From Bdellovibrio sp. (lineage in GTDB: Bacteria; Bdellovibrionota; Bdellovibrionia; Bdellovibrionales; Bdellovibrionaceae), in contig JAYSQO010000001.1 of the NCBI GenBank assembly GCA_043721535.1, forward strand, positions 19,626-83,625: a stretch of 64,000 bases of DNA. The letters run 5' to 3'. Under the pieces are notes generated by a model. The model saw only the letters and a list, made by a program, of their open reading frames with translations. It searched no databases and was not told the DNA's origin. Position numbers and translations under genes: made by a program. Positions within the stretch are counted from its first letter, which is position 1. Each line of letters begins with the position of its first letter. This document shows, piece after piece, positions 46,530 to 61,131 of the stretch.

Positions 46530-47564
46530 ATGTCGGTTGCTTTAGATAATAAAACTCATGCTTTTTTAGATCAGTACTTTAAAAATGATCAAATTAAGAT
46601 TCATCAACTTGCTGGTGATGCTTCGGCCAGAAAGTATTACCGCATTATTCATAATCAAGACACTTATGTTCTCATGTCGTGGCTGCCTTTTGATGCAGAA
46701 AAATATCCGTTTATTGATGTTCTACGACATTTTGAGCTAGCTAATGTGCATGTACCTAAGATTAAAAAAATTGGCGCTGAACAAGGATTAATTCTTCTTG
46801 AAGATCTTGGTGATTTAACTTTAGAAAGAAAATTCTGGGAATCATCACAACAAGAACTGTCATGGCATTTCTATAAAAAATCATTAGACGAAATTATAAA
46901 AATCCATACTCAGGCCACACAACTTAAGCAAAAGACAATTGCTAAAGATATCATGTTTGATACGGCAAAGTTTATGTGGGAAATGAATTATGCAAAAGAG
47001 CATCTGATCCAAGGTGTATTAAAATTTGATTTAAAATCAAAAACACTAAAAGAATTGTCAACCCAGTTGGATAAAGCCCTATTAGATATTTGTGAAAAAC
47101 TTCATTCAGAACCCAAAGTTATTTGCCATCGTGATTATCATTCAAGAAACTTAATGATCAAATTAGATAATATTTATGTCATTGATTTTCAAGATGCCAG
47201 GCTTGGACCGATTCAATATGATTTAGTTAGTTTAATTAAAGATTCTTATGTTGATATTAATGATCAGTATGCCGAAAAAATGATTAATTACTATTTAGAT
47301 AATACTGATTTTCTAAGATTACATAATAAAACTAAAGATCAGTTTTATTATATTTATGAAATTCAATCAATTCAAAGATGCTTTAAAGCTTGTGGTAGTT
47401 TTTCTAGTTTTATGAACACACGCGAAGATCGCAGATACCTAAAATATTTAGCACCAACGCTTAAAAAAGTCATGCGTTCGCTGACGCACTTCCCTGAATA
47501 CAAGCCATTACTTAATGTGCTTATTGATTCTGCTGCATTTGAAAAAAACTATGAGCAGCTCTAA
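46530..47564 (+). CDS. amgK: MurNAc/GlcNAc anomeric kinase AmgK (APH fold)
   Basis: LAGDASARKYYR, LLEDLGD, CHRDYHSRNLM, IDFQDARLGP..YDLVSL; upstream of a nucleotidyltransferase. Confidence 0.85.
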   Translation: MSVALDNKTHAFLDQYFKNDQIKIHQLAGDASARKYYRIIHNQDTYVLMSWLPFDAEKYPFIDVLRHFELANVHVPKIKKIGAEQGLILLEDLGDLTLERKFWESSQQELSWHFYKKSLDEIIKIHTQATQLKQKTIAKDIMFDTAKFMWEMNYAKEHLIQGVLKFDLKSKTLKELSTQLDKALLDICEKLHSEPKVICHRDYHSRNLMIKLDNIYVIDFQDARLGPIQYDLVSLIKDSYVDINDQYAEKMINYYLDNTDFLRLHNKTKDQFYYIYEIQSIQRCFKACGSFSSFMNTREDRRYLKYLAPTLKKVMRSLTHFPEYKPLLNVLIDSAAFEKNYEQL

Positions 47565-48354
47565 TCAAGCCCAAGCTTTTATTTTTGCAGCAGGCTTAGG
47601 AACACGACTAAGACCCATGACTGAAAAACATCCAAAACCCACTATTCCGTTATTTAGCGTGCCGATGGGTTATTATATTCTTCCTTATTTTGATCAAGTT
47701 CAAATCACAAAATATATTGCGAACACATTTCACCTGCCCGATCAAATTCATCAGCTGTATATAAATACAAATAAAGAATTTTTATTTTCTGATGAAAAAG
47801 ATTTTATTAAAGGTAGCGCTGGTGGTTTAAAACAAGCTGAAAAAATGATTTTACAAAATATCCCAATTATTGTTGCTAATTCAGATGAAATATTTTTTAC
47901 TGAAGAATTTAACTTCTTGGATAAAGCCTTAAAGCAGCATATAGAAAAAAAATCGCTAGCGACATTAATAGTTATTGAACACCCTGAAGCAGGTCGAAAA
48001 TTCGGCGGTATTTGGTGCAAAGAAAAAAAAGTAAGTCATATTGGTAAAGATCCTGCGCAAAAAGATCTAAAGCCGTGGCATTATATTGGTTTACAAATTT
48101 TATCATCTGAAGTTTTAAAATTGATTGAGCCTCATAAAGAATTAAATATTTTTTATGATGTACTAATTCACCATCTGGATCAAAAAGATATTTCAATTTA
48201 TCCGATTACTGCAGATTGGTACGAAACAGGAAATTATACTGATTATCAATTAGCTAAAACTGAAATTTCTAAAAAATCAGACCAAGTCATATACAAAAAT
48301 CATTTTGATTTATTAAAAAAATATCCAAAATCAGACCTGAGTGATCTGGCCTAG
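47551..48354 (+). CDS. murU: MurNAc-1-phosphate uridylyltransferase MurU (start refined to MSSSNQA at 47551)
   Basis: AAGLGTRLRPMT..HPKP, GSAGGL, WYETG; coupled to amgK. Confidence 0.8.
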   Translation: MSSSNQAQAFIFAAGLGTRLRPMTEKHPKPTIPLFSVPMGYYILPYFDQVQITKYIANTFHLPDQIHQLYINTNKEFLFSDEKDFIKGSAGGLKQAEKMILQNIPIIVANSDEIFFTEEFNFLDKALKQHIEKKSLATLIVIEHPEAGRKFGGIWCKEKKVSHIGKDPAQKDLKPWHYIGLQILSSEVLKLIEPHKELNIFYDVLIHHLDQKDISIYPITADWYETGNYTDYQLAKTEISKKSDQVIYKNHFDLLKKYPKSDLSDLA

Positions 48355-49428
48355 TATAACCTGTTTTTTTGCGGATGTGGCAGCAATCACATTAGCAGGG
48401 ATTTTCCAGATACAGCACGCTGCTAACAGGGCAAATGCGGCCCCTTCGATGCTTTGGTTTGACCAATCATAGTCATCTACTGTAGAAATTTTAATGCTTT
48501 CTAGTTCGGCTTCGATTCTGCGGATTAAATATTTATTTTTTGCTCCGCCACCGCAGAAAATAATTTCTTTAGGTTGTGGATTACAAAACTGTAAATAAGC
48601 TTTTGTAATTGATTGAACTGTCAGTTCAGTTAATGTGGCAAGTCGGTCTTCCAGTGTTAGCACTTCAAGTTGTGATTTATATTGATTGTAAAATACTATC
48701 CCAAACTGTTCACGGCCACAGCTTTTTGGCGGAACTTGTTTAAAATATTTATGCTGTAACATTTCTGCTAATAATGAAACATTAACTTTTCCACGTGAAG
48801 CTAATTCACCTTCTTTATCATAACTTAATTTACTGTTTGATGAATTGCGCATTTCTTCATCCATCAACATATTGGCAGGGCCTGTATCAAAAGCTAATTT
48901 CAATTTCTTATTAGTAATTAAACTTAAATTACTGATGCCGCCTAAATTATGTAAGCTGACCGTTTTTTTATTCTGGCCAAAAATTATTTGATGAAAAAAT
49001 GGAGCTAGTGGCGCACCTTCGCCGCCAGCGGCAATATCAGCAGATCTGAAATTTGAAACAACGGTCTTTTTTGATTTTACAGCTAAATAACTAGGTTCAC
49101 CAATTTGCAGCGTAGCTGTTTTTCCTTGGTGAAACACTGTTTGACCGTGAAGACCGATCAAATCTATTTTCTTCAGTTGTGTTGGCAATTCAGAAAAGCA
49201 ATCTGCGTAAAATCGGCCCAGTTCGTGATTCAGCAATGCCAATTCAGAAACAATCATTTCGTTTTGCGCGGCCCGTAATAATTTTTTTCGTAAAATAATA
49301 GGAAAAGAAAATGAATGCTGGCCCATATATTTACAATGTAAGTTTTTTTTATGAATTTTAACTTTAACAAAATCAACACCGTCTAGACTGGTGCCGCTCA
49401 TGATACCTAAAACTTTTAATTCTGCCAT
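48331..49428 (-). CDS. anmK: Anhydro-N-acetylmuramic acid kinase
   Basis: GIMSGTSLDGVD, HGQTVFH, DIAAGGEGAPL, NLGGISN, FDTGPAN, KSCGRE; convergent 24-nt overlap with murU. Confidence 0.96.
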   Translation of the reverse strand: MAELKVLGIMSGTSLDGVDFVKVKIHKKNLHCKYMGQHSFSFPIILRKKLLRAAQNEMIVSELALLNHELGRFYADCFSELPTQLKKIDLIGLHGQTVFHQGKTATLQIGEPSYLAVKSKKTVVSNFRSADIAAGGEGAPLAPFFHQIIFGQNKKTVSLHNLGGISNLSLITNKKLKLAFDTGPANMLMDEEMRNSSNSKLSYDKEGELASRGKVNVSLLAEMLQHKYFKQVPPKSCGREQFGIVFYNQYKSQLEVLTLEDRLATLTELTVQSITKAYLQFCNPQPKEIIFCGGGAKNKYLIRRIEAELESIKISTVDDYDWSNQSIEGAAFALLAACCIWKIPANVIAATSAKKQVILGQITQV

Positions 49429-49475: not shown

Positions 49476-50927
49476 TTACGGACTTATGAGGGTGTCTTGG
49501 TCGCCAATTCTTTTATATCTGCGATTCATCATTAAGAAAATATCATCATTAGCCACACCAATTAATTCCCCATTGAATTCTTTAGCTAGGCCTTCTGACG
49601 ACGGCTTTCTGTTTTTTTCATCATCATCAAGACCTTTTAGTTTATCATTATACAGCTTCCCTGAATCAATGCCTGCGTTGATATCAACTATTTTTGTACC
49701 ACCACCACTGTCACCAGATCCGCCGCCGGCGTAGTTCATACTCTTAAGTTGGCCTTTTGCATCCAAACCGGCTTTAGCTAAAACTCCATCTTTTGCATTC
49801 ATAGAATCTAATAATGCAGTTGCTTGTGCAGCAGTTAGACCTTTAGCCATCAATGATTTTACATCTTTAAAATCAGATAAACTAAAAACTTTGCCGTCTA
49901 AAGTTTTAATTGAGCCATCTGGTAAAACTTCGGCAAATTTATTCAGTTCAGGGCTAATCAGCGACGAAACTCCACCAGTATTTAGTTTTCCGTTCAGACC
50001 TGCTATGTCGCTTCCGACACCTGGGCAATCAACCACATTAATTGAAGTGCAACCTTCAGGTCGTGTGTATTTTGTTGTTGTTGCTGTTGGGGGCGGCCCA
50101 CAACTTTTTTGTGTTGATGACAGCTGATTATACGCCGTACAAGCTTGGTAAGCTGATGCTTCATGTTCATCAGATTGTTTGTTCGACTGCCCATTCAGCA
50201 ATGTGTACGCTGCACCTAACGCTTGAAACGCAGAGGCTGCAGGGCAACAACCTTGAGGACACGACCCTTTACACATCGCTGCCTTGGCATAATTAAATGC
50301 TGCTAAACCTGACAAAGCTTTCGAAGCCGCATCATACAACGACATACCATCTTCATTTTTTTTCTGAATTTCATCTAGGCCGCCAGTTGCAGTGCTATCA
50401 TCCATGTTCGAATATAAATCTTGATCAGATTTAGTCGCCACGCTGCCTTTAGTTAGATTTGTTGCATTAGTGTAAATACTATTTTTATAATTATAATCTG
50501 CTTGCAAGTTTGCATTAGTTTGCTGACAAGAAAAATAAGCAGTATTTGCAAAACCCATCGTACCAGTAGCGCTTCCACAATCTTTTAATGTCGGTGCAGT
50601 TGGGGCTATAAGTCCAGCACTGTTACCTTCATTAATTGAAGCGGCTTGTGCTGCACCCTGAACGGCTGTACTTCTGCTCGCTGAAATTTGATTATTTCTA
50701 GCAACACAGGCAGGATCTTGAATTTGTTTTGTTTCATATTTTTGGTTTAATGGATTATACACACTTTGTGAAATCATTTTACAGGTTTCATACTGTAAAC
50801 TTGATTCATTGAGAACATTTTGTTGAGCCCCATCTAAATAACTTGTCTGCGCAAATACAAATTGAGACAGGAAAAAACCGACAGCGCTTATTAATAATTG
50901 GCCCTTAAAATGAATATTCTTTTTCAT
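49476..50927 (-). CDS. Secreted Cys/Ser/Gly-rich hypothetical protein (483 aa)
   Basis: SD GGGGGAAG, signal peptide (…FVFAQ), Cys clusters, Gly-rich linker. Confidence 0.85.
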   Translation of the reverse strand: MKKNIHFKGQLLISAVGFFLSQFVFAQTSYLDGAQQNVLNESSLQYETCKMISQSVYNPLNQKYETKQIQDPACVARNNQISASRSTAVQGAAQAASINEGNSAGLIAPTAPTLKDCGSATGTMGFANTAYFSCQQTNANLQADYNYKNSIYTNATNLTKGSVATKSDQDLYSNMDDSTATGGLDEIQKKNEDGMSLYDAASKALSGLAAFNYAKAAMCKGSCPQGCCPAASAFQALGAAYTLLNGQSNKQSDEHEASAYQACTAYNQLSSTQKSCGPPPTATTTKYTRPEGCTSINVVDCPGVGSDIAGLNGKLNTGGVSSLISPELNKFAEVLPDGSIKTLDGKVFSLSDFKDVKSLMAKGLTAAQATALLDSMNAKDGVLAKAGLDAKGQLKSMNYAGGGSGDSGGGTKIVDINAGIDSGKLYNDKLKGLDDDEKNRKPSSEGLAKEFNGELIGVANDDIFLMMNRRYKRIGDQDTLISP

Positions 50928-50944
50928 ACTTCCCCCAAAAAAAT

Positions 50945-53257
50945 CTATGGCGCAGAAATCAAACTGCCGCGTGCTTCTGTGTATCTTTCTTTAATTTTAT
51001 CAAAATTTGATTTACCTGATGCAGTAGAAATTTCTGCACGCACTTGATCCGATGCAATTTTTCTTTTGATCGCTTGCAGCTGAACATCTTTTTGTTCTTT
51101 GGATAAAGATTTTCCACCTTTATCATTACCTTTTAATCCAAATAAATTTCCAAAACCTTTTGCTAAAGATGAAAAACCCATAGAAAATTTTGATTTTTCT
51201 TCTTCACCAGCAACACCTGCTGGTTTTGATGCCCCCGCAACACCGCTACCACCAGCTGAGCCGCCAGAACCTGTAGCTTCAGCAGTGCCGAATGGTGATG
51301 TAGGACTTAATCCATTGTCTGTTTTTGCTGCAATATCACTTGGTATATCACCAAACTGAATATCTGAATCAGATATTTTTGGTGCAGCTACGGAAGAAAA
51401 ACCAGAAACATTACCGACACCTTTTTGTAATCCTGCAAAACCAGAAACATTTGATCCGCCAAGGCTACCCAAACAACCCGCACCACTTGGATCAGCAGCA
51501 CAACGACAAGTTATGCTTGATGAATTCCCCGGCTGAGCACAAAACTGCGCCGTTGTTGCCAGTGATCCACTGCCTGAACCATCACCCGACGATAGTTGCT
51601 TTTCACATTTTTTTGAATCCATCGCTGCCGATAATAGTGCTGCTGCTTGTGCACCCATTGTTAGGATGTCTGCGCCGTTTTTTTTACATTGAGCTATTGG
51701 TACCGCAATTTTTTCTGGCTCAGGTTGAATTATCCCAGCTAAATTAGTTCTTTCAGCTTGAACAGTTGTAACATACTGTTTGATCTCTGGATAATTACTT
51801 GCTTCAACTTGACTGTTATAATGGTCTAAACACAGTTCTAAAAAATTACTCGCATTATTTATTTCAGTTAAGTTCTTTTTTGCATCTGCACAACTGAAAT
51901 CGCATCTAAATTTATAGCCTGAGCAAATAGCCTGAGCAGCTAACATTCCTCCGTTAGCAATACTGCTTACATTACCCATTACACCACAAGACTCAGAAGC
52001 TGCAGTTGCTTTTGATAAAACAGCAGTACCCGCACTAATCATTTTTTGAACATCTAATGCTTTCGGACTTCTCACTGTATTACAAAAATTATCTGCAGAT
52101 ATTGCATTCGAATTACAATCGCTTTTGTATCTCGAATATTTATTTGCAACTTCTGACAAGCTTTTAACTTCACTTGAACAAAATGGTCCACTGTTTGCCA
52201 TTTTATCTACTGATGCTTTAATTTTTTGGCCAATTTGTGAAACTTCGCTATCTGAATTCTGAGTTTGAGTTGCAGCTGTAGCATCTTTCGATTCTAAATT
52301 TTCGGGATTAGCTACCTCTTCAGCTTTAGGTTTAACTCCAGCTGGTGCCCGATCAACTTCAGGTTTTGTTTTCTCTAAGCTTTGATTCGCTAGGTTTTTA
52401 CTTTCTGCAGGCGTAGGCACAGACTTAGAATTTTGGTAATTAGGAGCAATTTGCTGTTCGCTTGAATCAACTGGTGCAGCACTTTGATTTGCAGCACTTG
52501 AAATAGCAGTAGGCTGTGGAACATTCAATTTTAAATGTGATGAGTAAGGATCAGAATTATTTACACTTCCGTGATTACTACTTGGAGCTGCTGATGAAGA
52601 ATCTGCTACTTGCTGGTTAGTTTTGTCAATTGCTTCGTTAACGGATTTGCCAATATTAGCACTACCCCATTTAAAATCACCAACGCCTTTAATTAATTCA
52701 TTACCACTTGCTTTTCCAGAGTTAAGAATTTCTTTCCCTGCGGGCGTGGCCGCCAAAACAGGAGCCATTTGTTTTGCAACGTTTAACAAATCTCCACTGC
52801 CACCGCCACCACTGCCACCACCATTGTCAGATTTACCTGGTGATGAAGATGATCCAGAACTTTTTGCAACTTGTGCTTGGGTAGCTTGCGGTTGTGCAGC
52901 TTTTGATTCGGCAACTGTTATAGTCTGACATTTTGAACCAACAGCTTTATTGAATTCTGCTTTTGCTGTTGCAGCTGGTATTACATCACTGCCGTAAGTA
53001 TAAAATCCAACGCCATCGACAGTCAGAAGTTTTTGAACCATTCTGCGACCGATTAATTCATTCATAATTTTATTGCGATCAGTGTCAGAAAGTTTTTGAT
53101 AACAAGCTTTAAATTCGCGGCTGCAACCAGTTTGACATTGATCATTGAAAAATTTAGTTTTGAGTTCTTGATCTGAACTAGCTGACGCTTCAGCAATGAA
53201 TATGAAAAAATTAGATAGAAAATATAGGATAACGAACAGAAAATGATTTGAAGTCAC
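50945..53257 (-). CDS. Secreted Cys/Ser/Ala-rich hypothetical protein (770 aa)
   Basis: GTG start after a GGGGGA SD, signal peptide, low-complexity linkers and a Cys-rich core; co-oriented 17 nt from the 483-aa gene. Confidence 0.85.
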   Translation of the reverse strand: MTSNHFLFVILYFLSNFFIFIAEASASSDQELKTKFFNDQCQTGCSREFKACYQKLSDTDRNKIMNELIGRRMVQKLLTVDGVGFYTYGSDVIPAATAKAEFNKAVGSKCQTITVAESKAAQPQATQAQVAKSSGSSSSPGKSDNGGGSGGGGSGDLLNVAKQMAPVLAATPAGKEILNSGKASGNELIKGVGDFKWGSANIGKSVNEAIDKTNQQVADSSSAAPSSNHGSVNNSDPYSSHLKLNVPQPTAISSAANQSAAPVDSSEQQIAPNYQNSKSVPTPAESKNLANQSLEKTKPEVDRAPAGVKPKAEEVANPENLESKDATAATQTQNSDSEVSQIGQKIKASVDKMANSGPFCSSEVKSLSEVANKYSRYKSDCNSNAISADNFCNTVRSPKALDVQKMISAGTAVLSKATAASESCGVMGNVSSIANGGMLAAQAICSGYKFRCDFSCADAKKNLTEINNASNFLELCLDHYNSQVEASNYPEIKQYVTTVQAERTNLAGIIQPEPEKIAVPIAQCKKNGADILTMGAQAAALLSAAMDSKKCEKQLSSGDGSGSGSLATTAQFCAQPGNSSSITCRCAADPSGAGCLGSLGGSNVSGFAGLQKGVGNVSGFSSVAAPKISDSDIQFGDIPSDIAAKTDNGLSPTSPFGTAEATGSGGSAGGSGVAGASKPAGVAGEEEKSKFSMGFSSLAKGFGNLFGLKGNDKGGKSLSKEQKDVQLQAIKRKIASDQVRAEISTASGKSNFDKIKERYTEARGSLISAP

Positions 53258-53278
53258 AAGTCCCCCTATGCCTATAGC

Positions 53279-53304
53279 TTATCGGTCTTTAGTCTAGAAA
53301 CTTA
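53279..53304 (-). promoter_or_regulatory. Possible sigma28 (FliA) promoter for the 770/483-aa operon
   Basis: Minus strand TAAG-N14-ACCGATAA, 21 nt upstream of the GTG. Confidence 0.45.
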
Positions 53305-53354
53305 AATAACGGGGGTTTACGTATCAGAATGAGTCATCAAATTAATACATCGAA

Positions 53355-54638
53355 TTAATTTTTTAATAATTTTATATTTTTCGATAAAGTATCAAATATC
53401 GAATCACTTATGATTTGAGGAAAATTTTGAGGTATCTTTTTACTTACCTGCCGAATAACTATATCAACAAGATCAATCAATTCTTGCATGACTTTCTCTA
53501 TTTCTTGATCGGAAAAGTGACAAATCTTTGCAGTTTGCTGCCAATGTCTTCTATGAATTTCTGAAATTTTATAGCGACGCTTATCGCCTATACACATAGA
53601 CATTTTTAAATCTTGATATTGGATCTTTTGATTTTTAACTAAAGGTGCCGCTGAAATAATATCATAAAACGGAGTCAACTGATAGCCCTCTGGTGAATGA
53701 AACAAACTAAAATTTTTACCATGCCCGTCTATTGCCGCTATGGCCCAATATAAAATTTGAGCTTTCATAAAATTTTTACGATCTTGGTCACGACTTTTTG
53801 ATGTGTCTAAAATTGTCATTATAGTTTTAAGACTTGGCCCACCATCGATTTCATACTTATGGTCAGATGAAATCGACAATGCTTGGCAAAAATCTTCTTG
53901 AGGTAGCCGAATTAAAAAATCATCTCTCCACAAACGGTCAAATCTTTCGATAACTAAAATTTTATACGAATCTATTTCAAGTATTTCTGTTTTCGCGACT
54001 GGCAATCCAAAGGCTTGCACTATTTGTGCACAAAGCCATTCATTTTCGACGGAATTCATCAAAGACACTGATGCTTTTTCTGAATTCATAGCAGGCTTAA
54101 AAATATGTGTAGTTGGTGTAGAATTTGTCGGTCTTAGCCATTGATTTTTATATCTCAAGAAAGCGGTTTTTTCCTGCATACCAGCTAATGATAATCGAAA
54201 GTCTTTTGTTGATACTAAACCTAATGGATAAAATTCTAAATTTTTGATTGTCTTTAAAATTTCAGCATCAGATACCAATTCACCTTCCGGCTGTTGTAAA
54301 GTCGGCCAAGCTTTATCTTCAGAAACAAACTGCATGGCGCCAACACAATCTTTACCAATACGAGCTAAAAGATCAAAAACTTCAGAACTATTTGCATGAG
54401 TCAGCTGTGCAATTTTTTTTCTAACGCTGACATTATCTGGTAATAAATTATCAAAATAATTAAAAACGACTGAACCCGTGTATGGCTCTTCTTTCAGATT
54501 AAAAGGTAAAGAAAATGAAAAAACTTTCGGGTTTAGCAACCAGCTTTCTGAATAAGTGAAAACTAATTGATTTTTTTTATTCTGAATCAATTCACCAATA
54601 TGAATGTGGTTCATAAAAACATTTAATTTTTGCTGCAT
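53355..54638 (-). CDS. hipA: HipA-family kinase toxin, module 2
   Basis: NYFDNLLPD, SLAGMQEK, THIFKP, ERFDR, PQEDFCQAL, DGHGKNFS, PFYDI. Confidence 0.94.
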   Translation of the reverse strand: MQQKLNVFMNHIHIGELIQNKKNQLVFTYSESWLLNPKVFSFSLPFNLKEEPYTGSVVFNYFDNLLPDNVSVRKKIAQLTHANSSEVFDLLARIGKDCVGAMQFVSEDKAWPTLQQPEGELVSDAEILKTIKNLEFYPLGLVSTKDFRLSLAGMQEKTAFLRYKNQWLRPTNSTPTTHIFKPAMNSEKASVSLMNSVENEWLCAQIVQAFGLPVAKTEILEIDSYKILVIERFDRLWRDDFLIRLPQEDFCQALSISSDHKYEIDGGPSLKTIMTILDTSKSRDQDRKNFMKAQILYWAIAAIDGHGKNFSLFHSPEGYQLTPFYDIISAAPLVKNQKIQYQDLKMSMCIGDKRRYKISEIHRRHWQQTAKICHFSDQEIEKVMQELIDLVDIVIRQVSKKIPQNFPQIISDSIFDTLSKNIKLLKN

Positions 54639-54922
54639 TAGAACAACCCTTTGTACGGATCATCGCTATGCACACGTTGTGAAATTTTGATTTCATAATC
54701 AAAGACTGCTAAAATGGCGAATAGTGTTTTCAACGTGGGTACTTTGTCTTTTTTTTCTAGATCAGAAATCGTCCCTTGGCGTCCACCGATTTTTTTTGCC
54801 AATTCTGTTTGCGTCCATCCTTTTTGTTTTCTTAACCGCTCTACTGTAGGACCCACTTCTTGAATACTTCGTAAAAATAAGGGTATTGCCTGAGTTTTTT
54901 TCTTCACAATTTTTTTCTTCAT
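54638..54922 (-). CDS. HipB-like XRE antitoxin, module 2
   Basis: HTH WTQTELAKKIGGRQGTISDLE; 1-nt overlap with hipA. Confidence 0.9.
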   Translation of the reverse strand: MKKKIVKKKTQAIPLFLRSIQEVGPTVERLRKQKGWTQTELAKKIGGRQGTISDLEKKDKVPTLKTLFAILAVFDYEIKISQRVHSDDPYKGLF

Positions 54923-54996
54923 ATACGCTCCAACGTATATAGTTTATCTTATACGCTATAGCGTGTAAATATGTATTTATACGCTATAGCGTCTTT
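54921..54996 (-). promoter_or_regulatory. hipBA-2 promoter with three palindromic operators
   Basis: ATATACGCTCCAACGTATAT (54921), TTATACGCTATAGCGTGTAA (54949) and TTATACGCTATAGCGTCTTT (54977). Minus-strand TTTACA(54969-64)-17-TAAACT(54946-41). Confidence 0.85.
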
Positions 54997-55123
54997 AGTC
55001 GGTCTTTTTAAGAAAGTCATTGTAAGAAGTAAGCTATCGACACATGAGCTATAGTAGATTTATCAATGCCGATGACATTGGTTTGAATGACTTTTTAGTT
55101 TCTATAGCTAGCCAATAGTGCCA

Positions 55124-57616
55124 CTAAAATTTTAAGAAATTTTCGTCAACGGGGTTTCTGATTTCTGAGCTTCCGGTGCCGGGGCCGCCTAAATCTTTAT
55201 GTTTAGTTTTTTGACGAACTAAATCAGAAGAAATAAGTTTCACTGAATACCCTGTGCGACCACCAGTCACACAATTACCTGGAACATCTGGCTGGCTTTT
55301 GTCATCTTCTTGCAATGTCGAATATATTTTTTCGTTACCCGTGCCATTGCCTTTGCGTTCGTCATTACAACTTCCGAAGTGCATAGTGTATGGCTTTGTA
55401 TCATATGAAGGTTCAGGAAATTCTTTATATTTACGGGGATCGTTGTATGTCCAGCCAGTTAGAGTCGCAGCTGGATTGCGGGGGATGAATGTGAAGAACA
55501 TATCTTTTACTGAATCTAAATTTTTAATTCGTATTTTAGATATATCATCGCTACTGGCAGCAAATAATTCCGCAACAACTTGTAGCTGACGACTGACATT
55601 GAATTCACGTGTGATCTGTGCAATTTTATCATTAACTGTAGAACCAAAATCATAGGGGAAAGCTAGCTTGCTAGCGTCTTCACCCGCTTTGTTGGCCATC
55701 TCACGAAATCCACTTTTGAATTGCCCAGAACCATCTTCAACTAAAATATCTTTACCATAGGCTTGATAAAAATTTGGTTCAATCGAATAGTATGAAACAT
55801 CAAACTGATTTGGTGCAACAACTGAGACTTCAATATCTCGTGTATAAGTATTTTTTGCGGTGCTACCATTAGCATCAATATCAATCGCCAATGGATCGTA
55901 ATCACTATCATTAGGAGTCTTTGTCAAATGGCTCCACTCTGACATGCTCGGCCAGCTATTTGGTTTCAATTTTATACTTTGATTTTGATCTTCTATTTTT
56001 GTGTCCGCTGATATTTTTGTATTCTGTCCTGGACTGCCATTAGGAATAACTTTGGCATTCAGCATTCCCTGATAAATTCCTAAATATTTATGATTGCGTA
56101 AACCTAGCTTGTCATCGATATACAATGAAAAGTTTGGAGTCACTTTAATTGAATCTTTCAATTTATTAACTAACTCTGAAGAAAAACCCGCTTCTTGTGT
56201 TGTACGCGCTGGTAGGTTGTAATCTGTGCGACCTTGTTCCCAATCACCTGCGCTACTTTTATCACTCCCTTGCGACCATGTTTTATAATACCAAGGGCCC
56301 AGAGTACCGCCGAATGGCTTAGCAAATGAAATTGCATTTAATTTAATTTTTGATAAAGGCAAGAATGGAATTCTTGGTTCACTTGTTGCTTTCACGCCGT
56401 AATAAACATTGTACCAAGGGTTTTTTTCAAAACCTAAAGTATTAATTTCTGCTGAGTTTTTTGCAAACAGATCTTTCATTTGTCCTGATATCTCTTTATA
56501 CTGCATATCGAATTTTTTCCAAACCGCTGCCTGTGTATTAAATGCACCTGTAGCATCATCACCAAAATTTTTAATATCAATCTGTGGATTACAATTATTT
56601 CCACTACCTGAACCGCATTGGCATTGTAGTAAAAAAAAGTTTAAATATTGAAAAGTAATTTCCGAAATTAATTCTTTTTCTTTATTCTTAGCACCATTAT
56701 ACGTCGTTATAGATGTGGGTGTTAAAGATGACTTATTTGCTTCTGTTAGATTATTTTTTAATGTATTTTCAACGCCAGTTAGTACTTTTTTTCCATCTAA
56801 ATCTAAAATTTCATTTTCAGGTTGAGTTAAGTTGTTATTCAAAACTTTAATTATTCTTTTTCGATTATCAGTATCAAAATAATAATTAGAATAAAATAGT
56901 CCCATTGACGCCAAGCTTACTGGTCCCAAAGTCTCACATCTACCCTGAAGATTAGCATTCGTTTTCGAAATGGCTGCATTTACGGCTTTGCCAATATTTG
57001 CATTTCCCCAAGAAAAGCCACCGACGCCGGATAAACTTTTAATACTGGTAGATGCATTGTTCATATGATTGCAATTGATTTTACAAAACGTTTCACCATC
57101 ACCTGCGTTAGCAAACCAATCTTGAAATCCATTATGACCCATACATAAAAACGGTGTGTCCGTAAAATTCATTTGATCAGCGCCACCACCGACGCATTTC
57201 AAAGAACCCGAATTACTATTAAACTCTAAGTGGCTCTTATATTTTTCCCATGCAATCGGAAGAGCGGGTGCTATTGTGGGGTTAATGTTTGTCCCTCCAA
57301 CTAGCCTTGGTTCCCGCTCCACCCCAAACGTCCCCAACACCCTGTATCGCCAAGTAAATAATTTCCAGGCTTGGCGGATTTGAAAATTTACATGGGCCAT
57401 CACATTTAAAATTTCAGCTTGCTTCATCGCGCCATAATAGGCGGCAAGATCTGTTGATTGTTGTAAATTAATTTTGTGATGAACAAGAAGTCCGACATTG
57501 ATCAACATTGCGAAAAAAACAAAAACCACTTGAAAAATAAGGGCCACGAAAACAGCGACCTGCCCTTTTTGATTTCTGCGAGATAAAATAAATTGTGGTT
57601 TTTTTTCTGATTTCAT
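55124..57616 (-). CDS. TadG-like pilus assembly protein / large pseudopilin
   Basis: RRNQKGQ followed by a hydrophobic helix and KINLQQSTDLAAYYGA (Tad domain signature); large C-terminal region. Confidence 0.8.
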   Translation of the reverse strand: MKSEKKPQFILSRRNQKGQVAVFVALIFQVVFVFFAMLINVGLLVHHKINLQQSTDLAAYYGAMKQAEILNVMAHVNFQIRQAWKLFTWRYRVLGTFGVEREPRLVGGTNINPTIAPALPIAWEKYKSHLEFNSNSGSLKCVGGGADQMNFTDTPFLCMGHNGFQDWFANAGDGETFCKINCNHMNNASTSIKSLSGVGGFSWGNANIGKAVNAAISKTNANLQGRCETLGPVSLASMGLFYSNYYFDTDNRKRIIKVLNNNLTQPENEILDLDGKKVLTGVENTLKNNLTEANKSSLTPTSITTYNGAKNKEKELISEITFQYLNFFLLQCQCGSGSGNNCNPQIDIKNFGDDATGAFNTQAAVWKKFDMQYKEISGQMKDLFAKNSAEINTLGFEKNPWYNVYYGVKATSEPRIPFLPLSKIKLNAISFAKPFGGTLGPWYYKTWSQGSDKSSAGDWEQGRTDYNLPARTTQEAGFSSELVNKLKDSIKVTPNFSLYIDDKLGLRNHKYLGIYQGMLNAKVIPNGSPGQNTKISADTKIEDQNQSIKLKPNSWPSMSEWSHLTKTPNDSDYDPLAIDIDANGSTAKNTYTRDIEVSVVAPNQFDVSYYSIEPNFYQAYGKDILVEDGSGQFKSGFREMANKAGEDASKLAFPYDFGSTVNDKIAQITREFNVSRQLQVVAELFAASSDDISKIRIKNLDSVKDMFFTFIPRNPAATLTGWTYNDPRKYKEFPEPSYDTKPYTMHFGSCNDERKGNGTGNEKIYSTLQEDDKSQPDVPGNCVTGGRTGYSVKLISSDLVRQKTKHKDLGGPGTGSSEIRNPVDENFLKF

Positions 57617-57714
57617 TCCAACATTTATGTTATCACGTGCACATGTGAAATCACCAGACCAACGACGCGTTTTGACCCAATTAGGACTACTAAATGGGTC
57701 GCTTTTTGACCCGT

Positions 57715-59049
57715 TTAAATTTTATATCTGGCTATAAACCCTTCGACTGCATAATAAGGCCAGTTTTTGACCTGAAGGTACGAGTTTTCTGCTAGTTTGA
57801 CTTTATCATCATGAAAATATTCATTTGAAAACTTAGTAGCTAAATCGATATTCTTTTCTTGAGCGAAAACTTGTAACGATTTCAATCGATTGCCTTTTGC
57901 AGCTTTAACTTCGATAGGTAGAATTTTTTTATCATGGCTCCAGATAAAATCAATTTCGGCTTTATCTTTATCTTTGTCTTTTAGCCAAAAATAATTTTCA
58001 GGCTGATTATTTTGATTATATGCGTAAGCCAAGTGCTGTGAAATAAATTGTTCTGCTAAAAAGCCTTTTGTTTCAAAAGATGAATCGAAAAGATCATTGA
58101 AATCATCCCAACTGATTTTATGAATTGAATTCAACAGACCAATATCAAGAAAATAAAATTTTAGCACAGAATGATCGATTGTCGAAGCCACTGGCAGCTG
58201 TGTCGCATTGACATGATAACAGGGCACCAGAATGTGTGCCAATCTTAGCATTTCAATATATTTTTTAATTTCAGCCGATTTCATTTCACGTTCAATATGC
58301 TGATAAATTATTTTTTTTCCTAAATGAAATGGAATTTTTTGAAAAATTTGTGTTAATTTTTCTAAGTGAGTTCTTTTTTCGTATTTCGGAAAATCAAGAG
58401 TATAAGACATTAAAATGTCATTTTGAATTTTTCTGACTTCGGTAAACGATTTTGTGTCGACATAAGTTTGAACAGCTTTTGGCATCCCACCGATATAAAA
58501 ATAATTTTTGACTTCTTGTTTTAAAAGCTCATGAGAATATTCTGGTATTTCATTGTTGATAATAGATTCAGCCAATTGTGTTTTATTAATACCATTTAAA
58601 TATTCTGTGAATGTCATTGGTGAAAGATAAAGATATTCCACCCGGCCTACAGGAAAAGATATACTTTGTTCACTAAGGCTTAGTTCTAAGAGTGACCCTG
58701 CGCAAATAACTGGTATTTCTTTTTTTTCTTCATAAAAATATCTAAGTTTTGATAAAGCTTCAGCTTGATTTTGAATTTCATCAATAAAAATAATCGTTTT
58801 TTCATCAATTTTTTGACTCGATATGATTTCTATTTCATTGATCCAGCTTTTGATATCAAAGTTTTCTGAATCGATTGAGCGAAACTTTGTTTTTTCTAAA
58901 TTGATTTCAATTAATTTATAATTTTCATTTTTTGCGAATTGTCTAACTAGATACGACTTGCCGACTTGGCGGGCTCCACGAAGCACTAATGGCTTTCTGT
59001 CATAATGTTTTAGCCATATTTTAAGACTACTTTCAGCTATTCGTTTCAT
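57715..59049 (-). CDS. AAA_14/DUF4143 ATPase, copy 3 (long type)
   Basis: GARQVGKS, IFIDEIQ, CAGSLL, FPVGRV, KFYFLDIGL, EIDFIW…IEVKA. Confidence 0.92.
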   Translation of the reverse strand: MKRIAESSLKIWLKHYDRKPLVLRGARQVGKSYLVRQFAKNENYKLIEINLEKTKFRSIDSENFDIKSWINEIEIISSQKIDEKTIIFIDEIQNQAEALSKLRYFYEEKKEIPVICAGSLLELSLSEQSISFPVGRVEYLYLSPMTFTEYLNGINKTQLAESIINNEIPEYSHELLKQEVKNYFYIGGMPKAVQTYVDTKSFTEVRKIQNDILMSYTLDFPKYEKRTHLEKLTQIFQKIPFHLGKKIIYQHIEREMKSAEIKKYIEMLRLAHILVPCYHVNATQLPVASTIDHSVLKFYFLDIGLLNSIHKISWDDFNDLFDSSFETKGFLAEQFISQHLAYAYNQNNQPENYFWLKDKDKDKAEIDFIWSHDKKILPIEVKAAKGNRLKSLQVFAQEKNIDLATKFSNEYFHDDKVKLAENSYLQVKNWPYYAVEGFIARYKI

Positions 59050-59081
59050 ATCAAATATATAGCATTTAGATTTGCTTATGT

Positions 59082-59141
59082 CAATAACACCCCTGTTTTA
59101 GTCTATTTTAAGTACAATAACACCCCTGTTTTAGTCTATTT
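59082..59141. repeat. Exact 27-bp direct repeat, two copies, 33-bp period
   Basis: CAATAACACCCCTGTTTTAGTCTATTT at 59082-59108 and 59115-59141. Confidence 0.95.
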
Positions 59142-59234
59142 AACTCTCGTTAGACCTTAGTCCGATTTATCACCAACGAGTCCCCTAAACGTTATTCATC
59201 GTTTAAAATAAAGATTATTCCGAAGGATAAATTT

Positions 59235-60015: not shown

Positions 60016-61131
60016 ATGAAATTAAATGAACTTATCGGCCAACACATGTTAATAGGCGTTTCAGGATTAACTCTGACATCTGACGAGAAAAAATTTATTA
60101 CTGAAAATAATATTTCTGGTGTGGTGCTGTTTTCCAGAAACTTATCCACACCTGAACAAATTCGGGATCTATGTGCAGAAATTCAATCTTTACGTCATAA
60201 GATGGCCTCACGTGCGCCCTTGTTTATCGGCATCGACATGGAAGGCGGACGTGTTCATCGCTTGAAATCTCCGTTCACACAGTGGCCACCACTGAAAACA
60301 ATTGGTGATCTTGATGCACCAACAGTGGCATTTCATTTCGCTCATCAAATGGGTATGGAATTAATGTCCGTAGGAATTAATCTTGATTTTGCACCTTGTA
60401 TTGATGTGTACACTAATCCAAAAAATACTGTCATCGGTGATCGTGCTGTTAGTAGCGATCCCCATCAAGTCGAAAAAATGGCATCAGCTTTAGTGCGTGG
60501 TTATATTAAATCAGGCATTTTATCTTGCGCTAAACATTTCCCCGGGCACGGACACACCATTATTGATTCCCATGAAGAATTACCAATTGAAGAAGCCGAT
60601 ATGAAAAGACTTAACGAAGTCGAACTTGTCCCGTTTAGAAAAGCACTTCGTAGCCGTGTTGATATGGTGATGACAGCCCACATTTTATTTAAATCCGTTG
60701 ATAAAGATTGGCCTGTGACATTATCAGAAATTTTTCTAAAAAAACTATTACGTGATGATTTAAAATACAGAGGCTTAGTCATCACTGATGATTTAGATAT
60801 GAAAGCCATGGCTAAACACTATGATAAAGGTTTTATTCCTGTGCGTTCCCTACAAGCCGGTGCTGATTTATTATTATATTGCAATGAACCTAAATCGCCA
60901 CCTATGGCCATTGAAACAATCATCACTGCTGTAGCCCAAGGTCAACATACTGAAGCCGAACTTAATCACACTTTAGGTCGCATTTTAGACGTTAAAAAAA
61001 TAAAAATGATTTCACCAGACCCGCGCCCAATCAGCGATTCTATGGAAATCATCGGCCACAAAGACCACCAATATATTGCTGACTGTTTACGGAAAGGCAT
61101 TATGCCTGAAGGCTTAGTTGATCAAGCATAG
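60016..61131 (+). CDS. nagZ: Beta-N-acetylhexosaminidase NagZ (GH3)
   Basis: IGIDMEGGRVHRL, KHFPGHG, DSH (catalytic His), VITDDLDM. Confidence 0.95.
   Translation: MKLNELIGQHMLIGVSGLTLTSDEKKFITENNISGVVLFSRNLSTPEQIRDLCAEIQSLRHKMASRAPLFIGIDMEGGRVHRLKSPFTQWPPLKTIGDLDAPTVAFHFAHQMGMELMSVGINLDFAPCIDVYTNPKNTVIGDRAVSSDPHQVEKMASALVRGYIKSGILSCAKHFPGHGHTIIDSHEELPIEEADMKRLNEVELVPFRKALRSRVDMVMTAHILFKSVDKDWPVTLSEIFLKKLLRDDLKYRGLVITDDLDMKAMAKHYDKGFIPVRSLQAGADLLLYCNEPKSPPMAIETIITAVAQGQHTEAELNHTLGRILDVKKIKMISPDPRPISDSMEIIGHKDHQYIADCLRKGIMPEGLVDQA
61093..61128 (+). repeat. nagZ 3' end, left copy of an imperfect 36-bp direct repeat
   Basis: aaaggcattatgcctgaaggcttagttgatcaagca (KGIMPEGLVDQA), 28/36 identical to 62311-62346. 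Confidence 0.85.

Follow-up and report, generated by a model that had tools for sequence, protein, structure and literature searches.

A 24-residue segment is shared by two proteins, an orphan TadG-like minor-pilin-type protein of 830 residues and a secreted protein of 770 residues, encoded in a 64,000-nucleotide stretch of the genome of Bdellovibrio sp. (GenBank assembly GCA_043721535.1, contig JAYSQO010000001.1, positions 19,626-83,625), hereafter the window. The shared segment is real, recurs in other genomes and is, at least in part, under selection; it represents a variant of two known processes, gene conversion between linked genes and linear-motif mimicry. The reading that we favor, which we give somewhat better than an even chance, is that of a genus-wide, concertedly evolving self-mimic, whereby a TadG segment would have been copied into the linker of the neighboring protein and kept there by selection in some lineages. 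The Tad pilus tips of predatory bacteria have been recognized only recently as modular, prey-facing devices, and a shared, co-varying and partly selected peptide provides a handle on how secreted neighbors connect to the tip protein; that handle is a peptide of 25-40 residues with known natural presence/absence variants.

The TadG-like protein and its secreted neighbor share one short segment

Both open reading frames (ORFs) lie on the minus strand, and the 24-residue match was found exactly where an earlier note on this DNA had placed it (Table 1). Residues 191-214 of the 770-residue protein (GVGDFKWGSANIGKSVNEAIDKTN) and residues 197-220 of the TadG-like protein (GVGGFSWGNANIGKAVNAAISKTN) are identical at 18 of 24 amino acids and 53 of 72 nucleotides, and 8 of the 18 identical residues are specified by different codons. 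When the whole proteins were compared by BLASTP, this region gave the single significant high-scoring segment pair (HSP; 26 residues, 69% identity, 40.8 bits, E = 2e-7), with no further HSP below E = 4. A tblastn search of the whole 2.57-Mb assembly with a 30-residue motif query likewise returned just these two copies (cross-hit E = 2e-8), both inside full-length ORFs; the next match, at C1:89333-89392 of the genome (E = 0.29), lies in a frame of 31 codons and was discarded as a chance hit.

The copy in the 770-residue protein is an island, as the earlier note had also seen. It lies within a low-complexity linker (residues 122-325) that is predicted by AlphaFold2 to be disordered (predicted local distance difference test, pLDDT, <50), and its flanks are unrelated to the TadG-like protein. 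Profile-profile comparison of the two families with hhalign returned a probability of 0.2%, indicating no family-level homology and excluding such homology of the 770 N-terminus with TadG.

A lone 40-bit match would be only borderline in an all-against-all comparison of one proteome, and the segment is compositionally simple, being rich in Gly, Ala, Asn and Ser, which could favor chance or compositional similarity. The 24-residue match is nonetheless secure because it recurs in other genomes, where it repeats with different sequences. Chance is further opposed by the E values (2e-7 pairwise, 2e-8 genome-wide) and by the lack of any further copy in the assembly, and remote common ancestry of the two whole proteins is opposed by the hhalign result. 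The probability that either accounts for the match is thus close to nil, and both appear already refuted by the match statistics, hhalign and the cognate ranking given below.

The block recurs in other genomes and tracks the cognate TadG

Other Pseudobdellovibrio genomes and metagenome contigs encode 770-family proteins with a block of 25-40 residues at the same relative position of the linker, always ~165-235 residues from the N-terminus and always covering the same TadG stretch. In a set of species representatives with 27 full-length 770-family proteins, the block is clear in three (G000, G025 and G072), where the genome's own TadG is the best match, and weak in one (G013). These four carriers are scattered on the TadG tree, requiring at least four changes. 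The block is also present in a second, metagenome-derived clade (P0138, P0140, P0143, P0144, P0148 and P0154; hereafter clade 2) and in P0156, where it spans ~35-40 residues, reads KIxEIPxVGTSSIYGNxxGxxxNxAIDKANxxIRKHN and matches the TadG version of that clade.

Partner TadG proteins are known for 12 block-bearing 770-family proteins, and in all 12 cases the cognate segment has a rank of 1-22 among 155. The G025 pair reveals the relationship at the DNA level, as 69 of 81 nucleotides are identical, including a perfect run of 39 nucleotides, and similarity falls to random at both edges; these features of the sequence point to recent gene conversion. All other pairs are old, with identical runs of 11 nucleotides at most. 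Both marks of concerted evolution, the cognate similarity ranking and a sharp-edged tract (G025), are therefore present, and we are highly confident that the segment represents a real, DNA-derived and co-varying module. The TadG-like gene is the source and the 770 copy is secondary, because the segment is resident and alignable in all of more than 120 TadG-like homologs, while the 770 and TadG families share nothing else.

The clade-2 770 proteins also contain a second linker island (...DPELxARHAxSxAEDxAL..., ~residues 296-340 of P0143, L088) with a mean identity of ~0.5. This island is predicted to be helical and is unrelated to TadG.

The copied block is probably constrained in several lineages

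The proposal in the earlier note that the peptide, rather than the DNA alone, is conserved agrees with the ratios of nonsynonymous to synonymous substitution rates (dN/dS). These are ~0.14 between the two copies in this genome (24 codons only), 0.14-0.36 at dS of 0.9-1.9 among the clade-2 770 blocks and 0.15-0.40 among the orthologous 770 copies of the G000 species group (24 codons). Within clade-2 genomes, the 770/TadG pairs show 57-59% nucleotide identity with runs of no more than 11 nucleotides, yet 50-56% amino acid identity, and the mean pairwise identity of the clade-2 block is 0.51-0.56 compared to 0.06-0.24 in the flanking linker. The 770 blocks moreover share residues of their own: "AID" is found in the blocks of five of six clades, compared to Asp in 17% of TadG proteins at that column, and an upstream Glu is also common to the 770 blocks and not to their TadG partners. 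The conserved island, the low dN/dS and the 770-specific shared residues argue for constraint on the 770 copy itself, and the block is probably under selection in at least some lineages.

Probable transfer, descent and allele mosaicism within the G000 group

In the G000 species group, the motif is intact in P0009, P0010 and P0011. The 770 copies of this group cluster together (57-67 of 72 nucleotides) and not with any TadG (at most 53 of 72), which indicates a single transfer at the root of the group, after which the copies were inherited, shuffled into mosaic alleles and in part decayed. Ongoing within-genome homogenization was rejected for this clade, given that its 770 copies group with each other and not with their own TadG.

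The same clustering bears on the direction of transfer. If the 770 copy were a reservoir that gives variant loops back to tadG-like, as the silent pilS copies do for Neisseria pilE, gene conversion between the two loci would be expected, and it does occur; the G025 tract, moreover, could have passed either way. However, there is one copy per genome, located inside an expressed and conserved ORF, the G000 770 copies are closer to each other than to any TadG, and the TadG segment is alignable across its family. A donor role is therefore very improbable. A diversity-generating retroelement was also considered and rejected: the differences between the copies involve all bases and are not adenine-specific, and no reverse transcriptase was detected among the ten flanking ORFs scanned.

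The 770 gene as a whole is a recombination mosaic between strains (orthologs P0008-P0013, L080-L085). P0008 is 91% identical in its C-terminal half and has a different linker, and P0009 and P0010 have the N-terminus and motif found in this genome and a different middle region.

Patchy distribution of the block and the case for a neutral patch

Several observations weigh against a copied segment that is maintained for a function. The block is absent from 23 of the 27 full-length species representatives, and the closest species-level ortholog, G028 (54% identity), has conserved flanks without the segment between them. Within the G000 group, the motif has decayed in P0012 (5-residue insertion plus substitutions) and P0013 (deletion, F>I, W>L), and P0008 harbors an unrelated sequence at the motif site (25 of 72 nucleotides) that resembles the motif-less G028 allele. 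Near-identical alleles are found with and without the block (P0140/P0139, P0138/P0150 and P0154/P0152). The dN/dS values are based on 24-36 codons with dS near saturation, the block has a pLDDT of ~25-33 in the model of the 770-residue protein, and the corresponding tadG-like/770-like/483-like cassette of a Bdellovibrio bacteriovorus-type genome works without such a block. The possibility that the P0008 segment is a compensated frameshift of the motif was examined and rejected, as its DNA is unrelated and its protein resembles the G028 allele.

The earlier note had held that orthologs lacking or freely mutating the segment would mark it as a neutral captured fragment. Such orthologs do exist, G028 being without it and P0012, P0013 and P0008 altered, and to that extent the concern stands. 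The block is thus probably selected in some lineages and is not essential to the 770 family, as many lineages have lost or replaced it or show it in decayed form.

The main rival to a selected copy is a neutral one, in which microhomology-primed template switching or gene conversion writes the TadG stretch into a tolerant, disordered linker, where it drifts and needs no function. The two genes have the same orientation and are separated by 0.1-4 kb, the linker of the neighbor resembles the TadG segment in its richness in Gly, Ala, Asn and Ser, and this linker is hypervariable and mosaic between strains. The P0008 "pre-copy" allele shares GTTGG / V-G at the 5' junction, from which we infer microhomology, and the DNA-level tract in G025, the patchy distribution, the decay and the presence/absence among close alleles would all be expected of neutral patches. 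However, the same donor segment has reached the same acceptor position in at least 4-6 scattered lineages, and 770-specific residues are common to several clades. In clade 2, moreover, the block forms a conserved island whose dN/dS is low at a dS near saturation, and it bears no sign of recent conversion. On balance, we regard a wholly neutral origin and fate as unlikely, although as the strongest of the alternatives.

The copied stretch is a predicted loop and helix start in the TadG-like protein

The earlier note had called for a structure prediction of the TadG-like protein alone, and AlphaFold2 yielded a confident model from 120 homologs (pLDDT 87, predicted template modeling score 0.89). 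The model is composed of a helix (residues 16-94), a Cys-rich irregular region, a second helix of 56 residues (208-263) and a large body, and has no fold relatives in the PDB at E ≤ 0.001. The shared segment sits between the invariant Cys178/Cys182 and Cys227 and forms a loop (197-207) followed by the first 13 residues of helix 208-263; Asn220, at its end, is conserved in 96% of the 120 homologs. As the segment contains no β-strand in this model, the strand exchange envisaged in the earlier note does not fit. In the 770 copy, a low-confidence helix is predicted for residues 203-219, giving the same loop/helix split.

The only Pfam domain found in the TadG-like protein is PF13400 (residues 18-64, E = 5.5e-7), which is present in 118 of 120 among the homologs listed. 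Its N-terminus reads KG/QVAVF, without a Glu at +5. The named homologs in databases come from Pseudobdellovibrio and Bdellovibrionota and are annotated as "Tad domain-containing protein". Across the 120 homologs, two stretches are nearly invariant, the motif GNCVTGGRTGYSVK and, at the extreme C-terminus, NPxxExFLKF.

No flp, tadE, tadF or tad machinery genes are located beside the TadG-like gene, the neighbors of which encode a DUF3108 protein, a GH3 (NagZ-type) hydrolase, AnmK, HipBA and a DUF4143 ATPase. The lone tadG of B. bacteriovorus is likewise an orphan; it is required for efficient prey invasion, and its depletion impairs invasion (bioRxiv 10.64898/2026.07.08.737194). The TadG-like protein is most likely the counterpart of this lone TadG because the HD100-type genome has a single TadG-like homolog. 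An assignment as Bd0109 was rejected, since the HD100-type genome has the Bd0108 C-terminal peptide at 96.9 kb and its only TadG-like homolog at 132-134 kb.

Proposed mechanism for the copied block

We propose that the copied stretch corresponds to a variable TadG loop together with the opening turns of its second long helix (~residues 190-225, between the invariant cysteines). A short-tract DNA transfer of ~75-110 nucleotides would carry it from tadG-like into the neighboring gene by non-reciprocal gene conversion or templated patch replacement. This transfer may have happened or been renewed several times in the genus, such that the copy of each clade would come to resemble its own TadG version. 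The copy would then have been kept by purifying selection in several lineages, leaving a conserved island in a fast-evolving linker. Such a block could act as a self-mimic that presents the TadG loop and helix start in trans, which would allow the secreted partner to occupy the surface contacted by the TadG segment, whether that surface belongs to TadG itself or to a shared partner, for example the 483-residue protein or other minor pilins. The block would thereby be a modulatory docking or competition motif within a TadG/770/483 tip cassette. Docking or competition is a tentative assignment of function, to which we give slightly less than an even chance. The most complete form of the proposal, in which a co-evolving self-mimic is re-synchronized by episodic gene conversion and the 770-residue protein plugs into or competes for the TadG loop-helix site in the tip complex, is more doubtful.

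A variable loop could also be copied for a different reason. If the TadG loop is exposed at the tip and targeted by a phage receptor-binding protein or a prey factor, an abundant secreted 770 protein might show the same loop as a soluble decoy, which would therefore have to follow changes in TadG and could come and go with that pressure. Consistent with this, loop 197-207 varies more between TadG clades than the rest of the segment and is tracked by the 770 copy, presence/absence polymorphism exists among near-identical alleles, and the locus is a hot spot for the insertion of accessory genes. The helix-start residues (N-x-A-I-x-x-x-N) are, however, retained as strongly as the loop, which is better explained by a structural or binding role than by an epitope. 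We thus consider a decoy improbable and, along with the donor role discussed above, a minor rival.

The secreted proteins and the conserved cassette

In the 770-residue protein, a small, folded, Cys-containing N-terminal domain is joined through the long disordered linker to a C-terminal domain that is Cys-rich and helical; the C-terminal tail of the protein is conserved, and no Pfam domain was detected in it. Its gene belongs functionally with the TadG-like gene, as the earlier note had supposed, the tadG-like/770-like/483-like cassette being conserved across the order. In relatives, the gene order is DUF3108, tadG-like, 770, 483 and anmK, with different accessory genes at the same gaps. The three-gene cassette is also found in a B. 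bacteriovorus-type genome and in another family, where the 770-like proteins are shorter and none of these neighbors of tadG carries the block.

Table 1 Features of the tadG-like locus, with positions numbered in the window.
Feature	Position	Strand	Remarks
Orphan TadG-like minor-pilin-type gene, 830 residues	55124..57616	-	N-terminal Tad domain, two long helices, Cys-rich loop region, large C-terminal body
N-terminal Tad/pseudopilin hydrophobic domain, residues 18-64	57425..57565	-	PF13400, 30.3 bits (cut-off 22.3)
Donor-type segment of the TadG-like protein, residues 197-220	56957..57028	-	Loop 197-207 plus first turns of helix 208-263
hipB-hipA toxin-antitoxin pair between the TadG-like and 770 genes	53355..54922	-	Same gap in relatives is without it
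770-residue secreted protein	50945..53257	-	GTG start; Sec-type signal peptide ending AEASA (read directly)
Disordered low-complexity linker of the 770-residue protein, residues 122-325	52283..52894	-	pLDDT <50; houses the copied block
Copied segment in the 770-residue protein, residues 191-214	52616..52687	-	18/24 amino acids and 53/72 nucleotides shared with the TadG-like segment
483-residue secreted protein, third conserved cassette member	49476..50927	-	

The 770- and 483-residue proteins have similar tails (window 49476-53257, minus strand), ...SNFDKIKERY...SLISAP and ...FLMMNRRYKRIGDQDTLISP, and the same kinds of tail are found on the neighbors of tadG in the B. bacteriovorus-type locus (L090, G116, ORFs at offsets 5218 and 6720; ...SNWEKIKERYRDNK... 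and ...IFLMMTRRYKVKE...). By analogy to the C-terminal docking strand of PilC/PilY1, these 770/483 tails are candidates for a peptide that docks at the tip.

The gaps flanking the tadG-like gene (window 53258-55123 and 57617-59234) are hot spots for accessory-gene insertion. In this genome, they contain hipBA and the DUF4143 ATPase gene, the latter upstream of the TadG-like gene; L082 (2911-7776) has a Fic gene and an AAA_14/DUF4143 gene, and G071 and G075 (L066/L067) have ~1.5 kb extra. The cassette is embedded among peptidoglycan-recycling genes (window 46530-49428 and 60016-61131) that encode AnmK, a GH3 NagZ-type hydrolase, an APH-family kinase and an NTP-transferase, and this neighborhood is conserved in relatives. 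The kinase and the NTP-transferase may be AmgK/MurU-like.

Comparison with known systems

A literature search for a described equivalent of the shared block found none, and several systems resemble it in part. In type IV filaments, PilK-type pilins and PilC/PilY1 adhesins provide cis/trans supply of a terminal β-strand, and the TadG-type protein CpaL supplies the strand in cis (PMC13533445). As in our case, a short peptide of a large non-pilin protein corresponds to a structural element that the tip minor pilin can supply itself, and in the PilC/PilY1 system the adhesin is anchored at the tip through the supply of this one segment in cis or in trans. By contrast, the PilC/PilY1 element consists of the extreme C-terminal ~10 residues and is a β-strand that completes the minor-pilin sheet, while the element described here is internal (191-214 of 770), lies in a disordered linker and is predicted to be a loop plus helix. 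Moreover, both proteins here carry the segment at once. Trans β-strand addition of the PilC/PilY1 type thus does not apply, because the element is internal and helical or loop-like.

TadG-type proteins have been modeled as the backbone of the Tad pilus tip complex, and Tad/Kil tip complexes are interchangeable and built on TadG/KilN-type large minor pilins (PMC12075869). These tips share with our locus a predatory bacterium as host, companion proteins and a large TadG-like protein that combines a pilin-type N-terminus with a variable body. Their companions are TadE/TadF-type pilins, however, whereas those found here are Sec-secreted and lack a pilin-type N-terminus (as read directly from the sequence), and the Tad/Kil work describes no peptide shared between a tip pilin and a companion (PMC12075869).

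At the Bdellovibrio hit locus, the disordered secreted protein Bd0108 binds its neighbor Bd0109, which has a pilin-like N-terminus, and modulates pilus extrusion (PMC3818213, PMC4267844). There, too, a predator related to ours encodes a disordered secreted protein next to a protein with a pilin-like N-terminus; Bd0108 and the 770-residue protein have no sequence relation.

In Neisseria, antigenic variation proceeds by short-tract gene conversion from several silent partial copies (pilS) to one expressed pilin locus (pilE). The likeness to our locus lies in short, non-reciprocal DNA tracts passing between a pilin gene and a nearby partial homolog. However, pilE/pilS is a cassette array, while here one copy resides inside an expressed gene for an unrelated protein and the direction of transfer would be outward from the pilin gene. 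Instead of several silent copies, the genome has two, both in full-length ORFs, and the 770 copies derive from TadG types. The shared block is a clear natural case in which short-tract gene conversion creates and refreshes a linear motif in a disordered region. If the proposed function is correct, it would also represent a second way of supplying a segment in cis or trans at the tips of type IV filaments, one based on a helix and loop, which could be switched by gain or loss of the block and would tune the cargo or assembly of the predatory Tad pilus.

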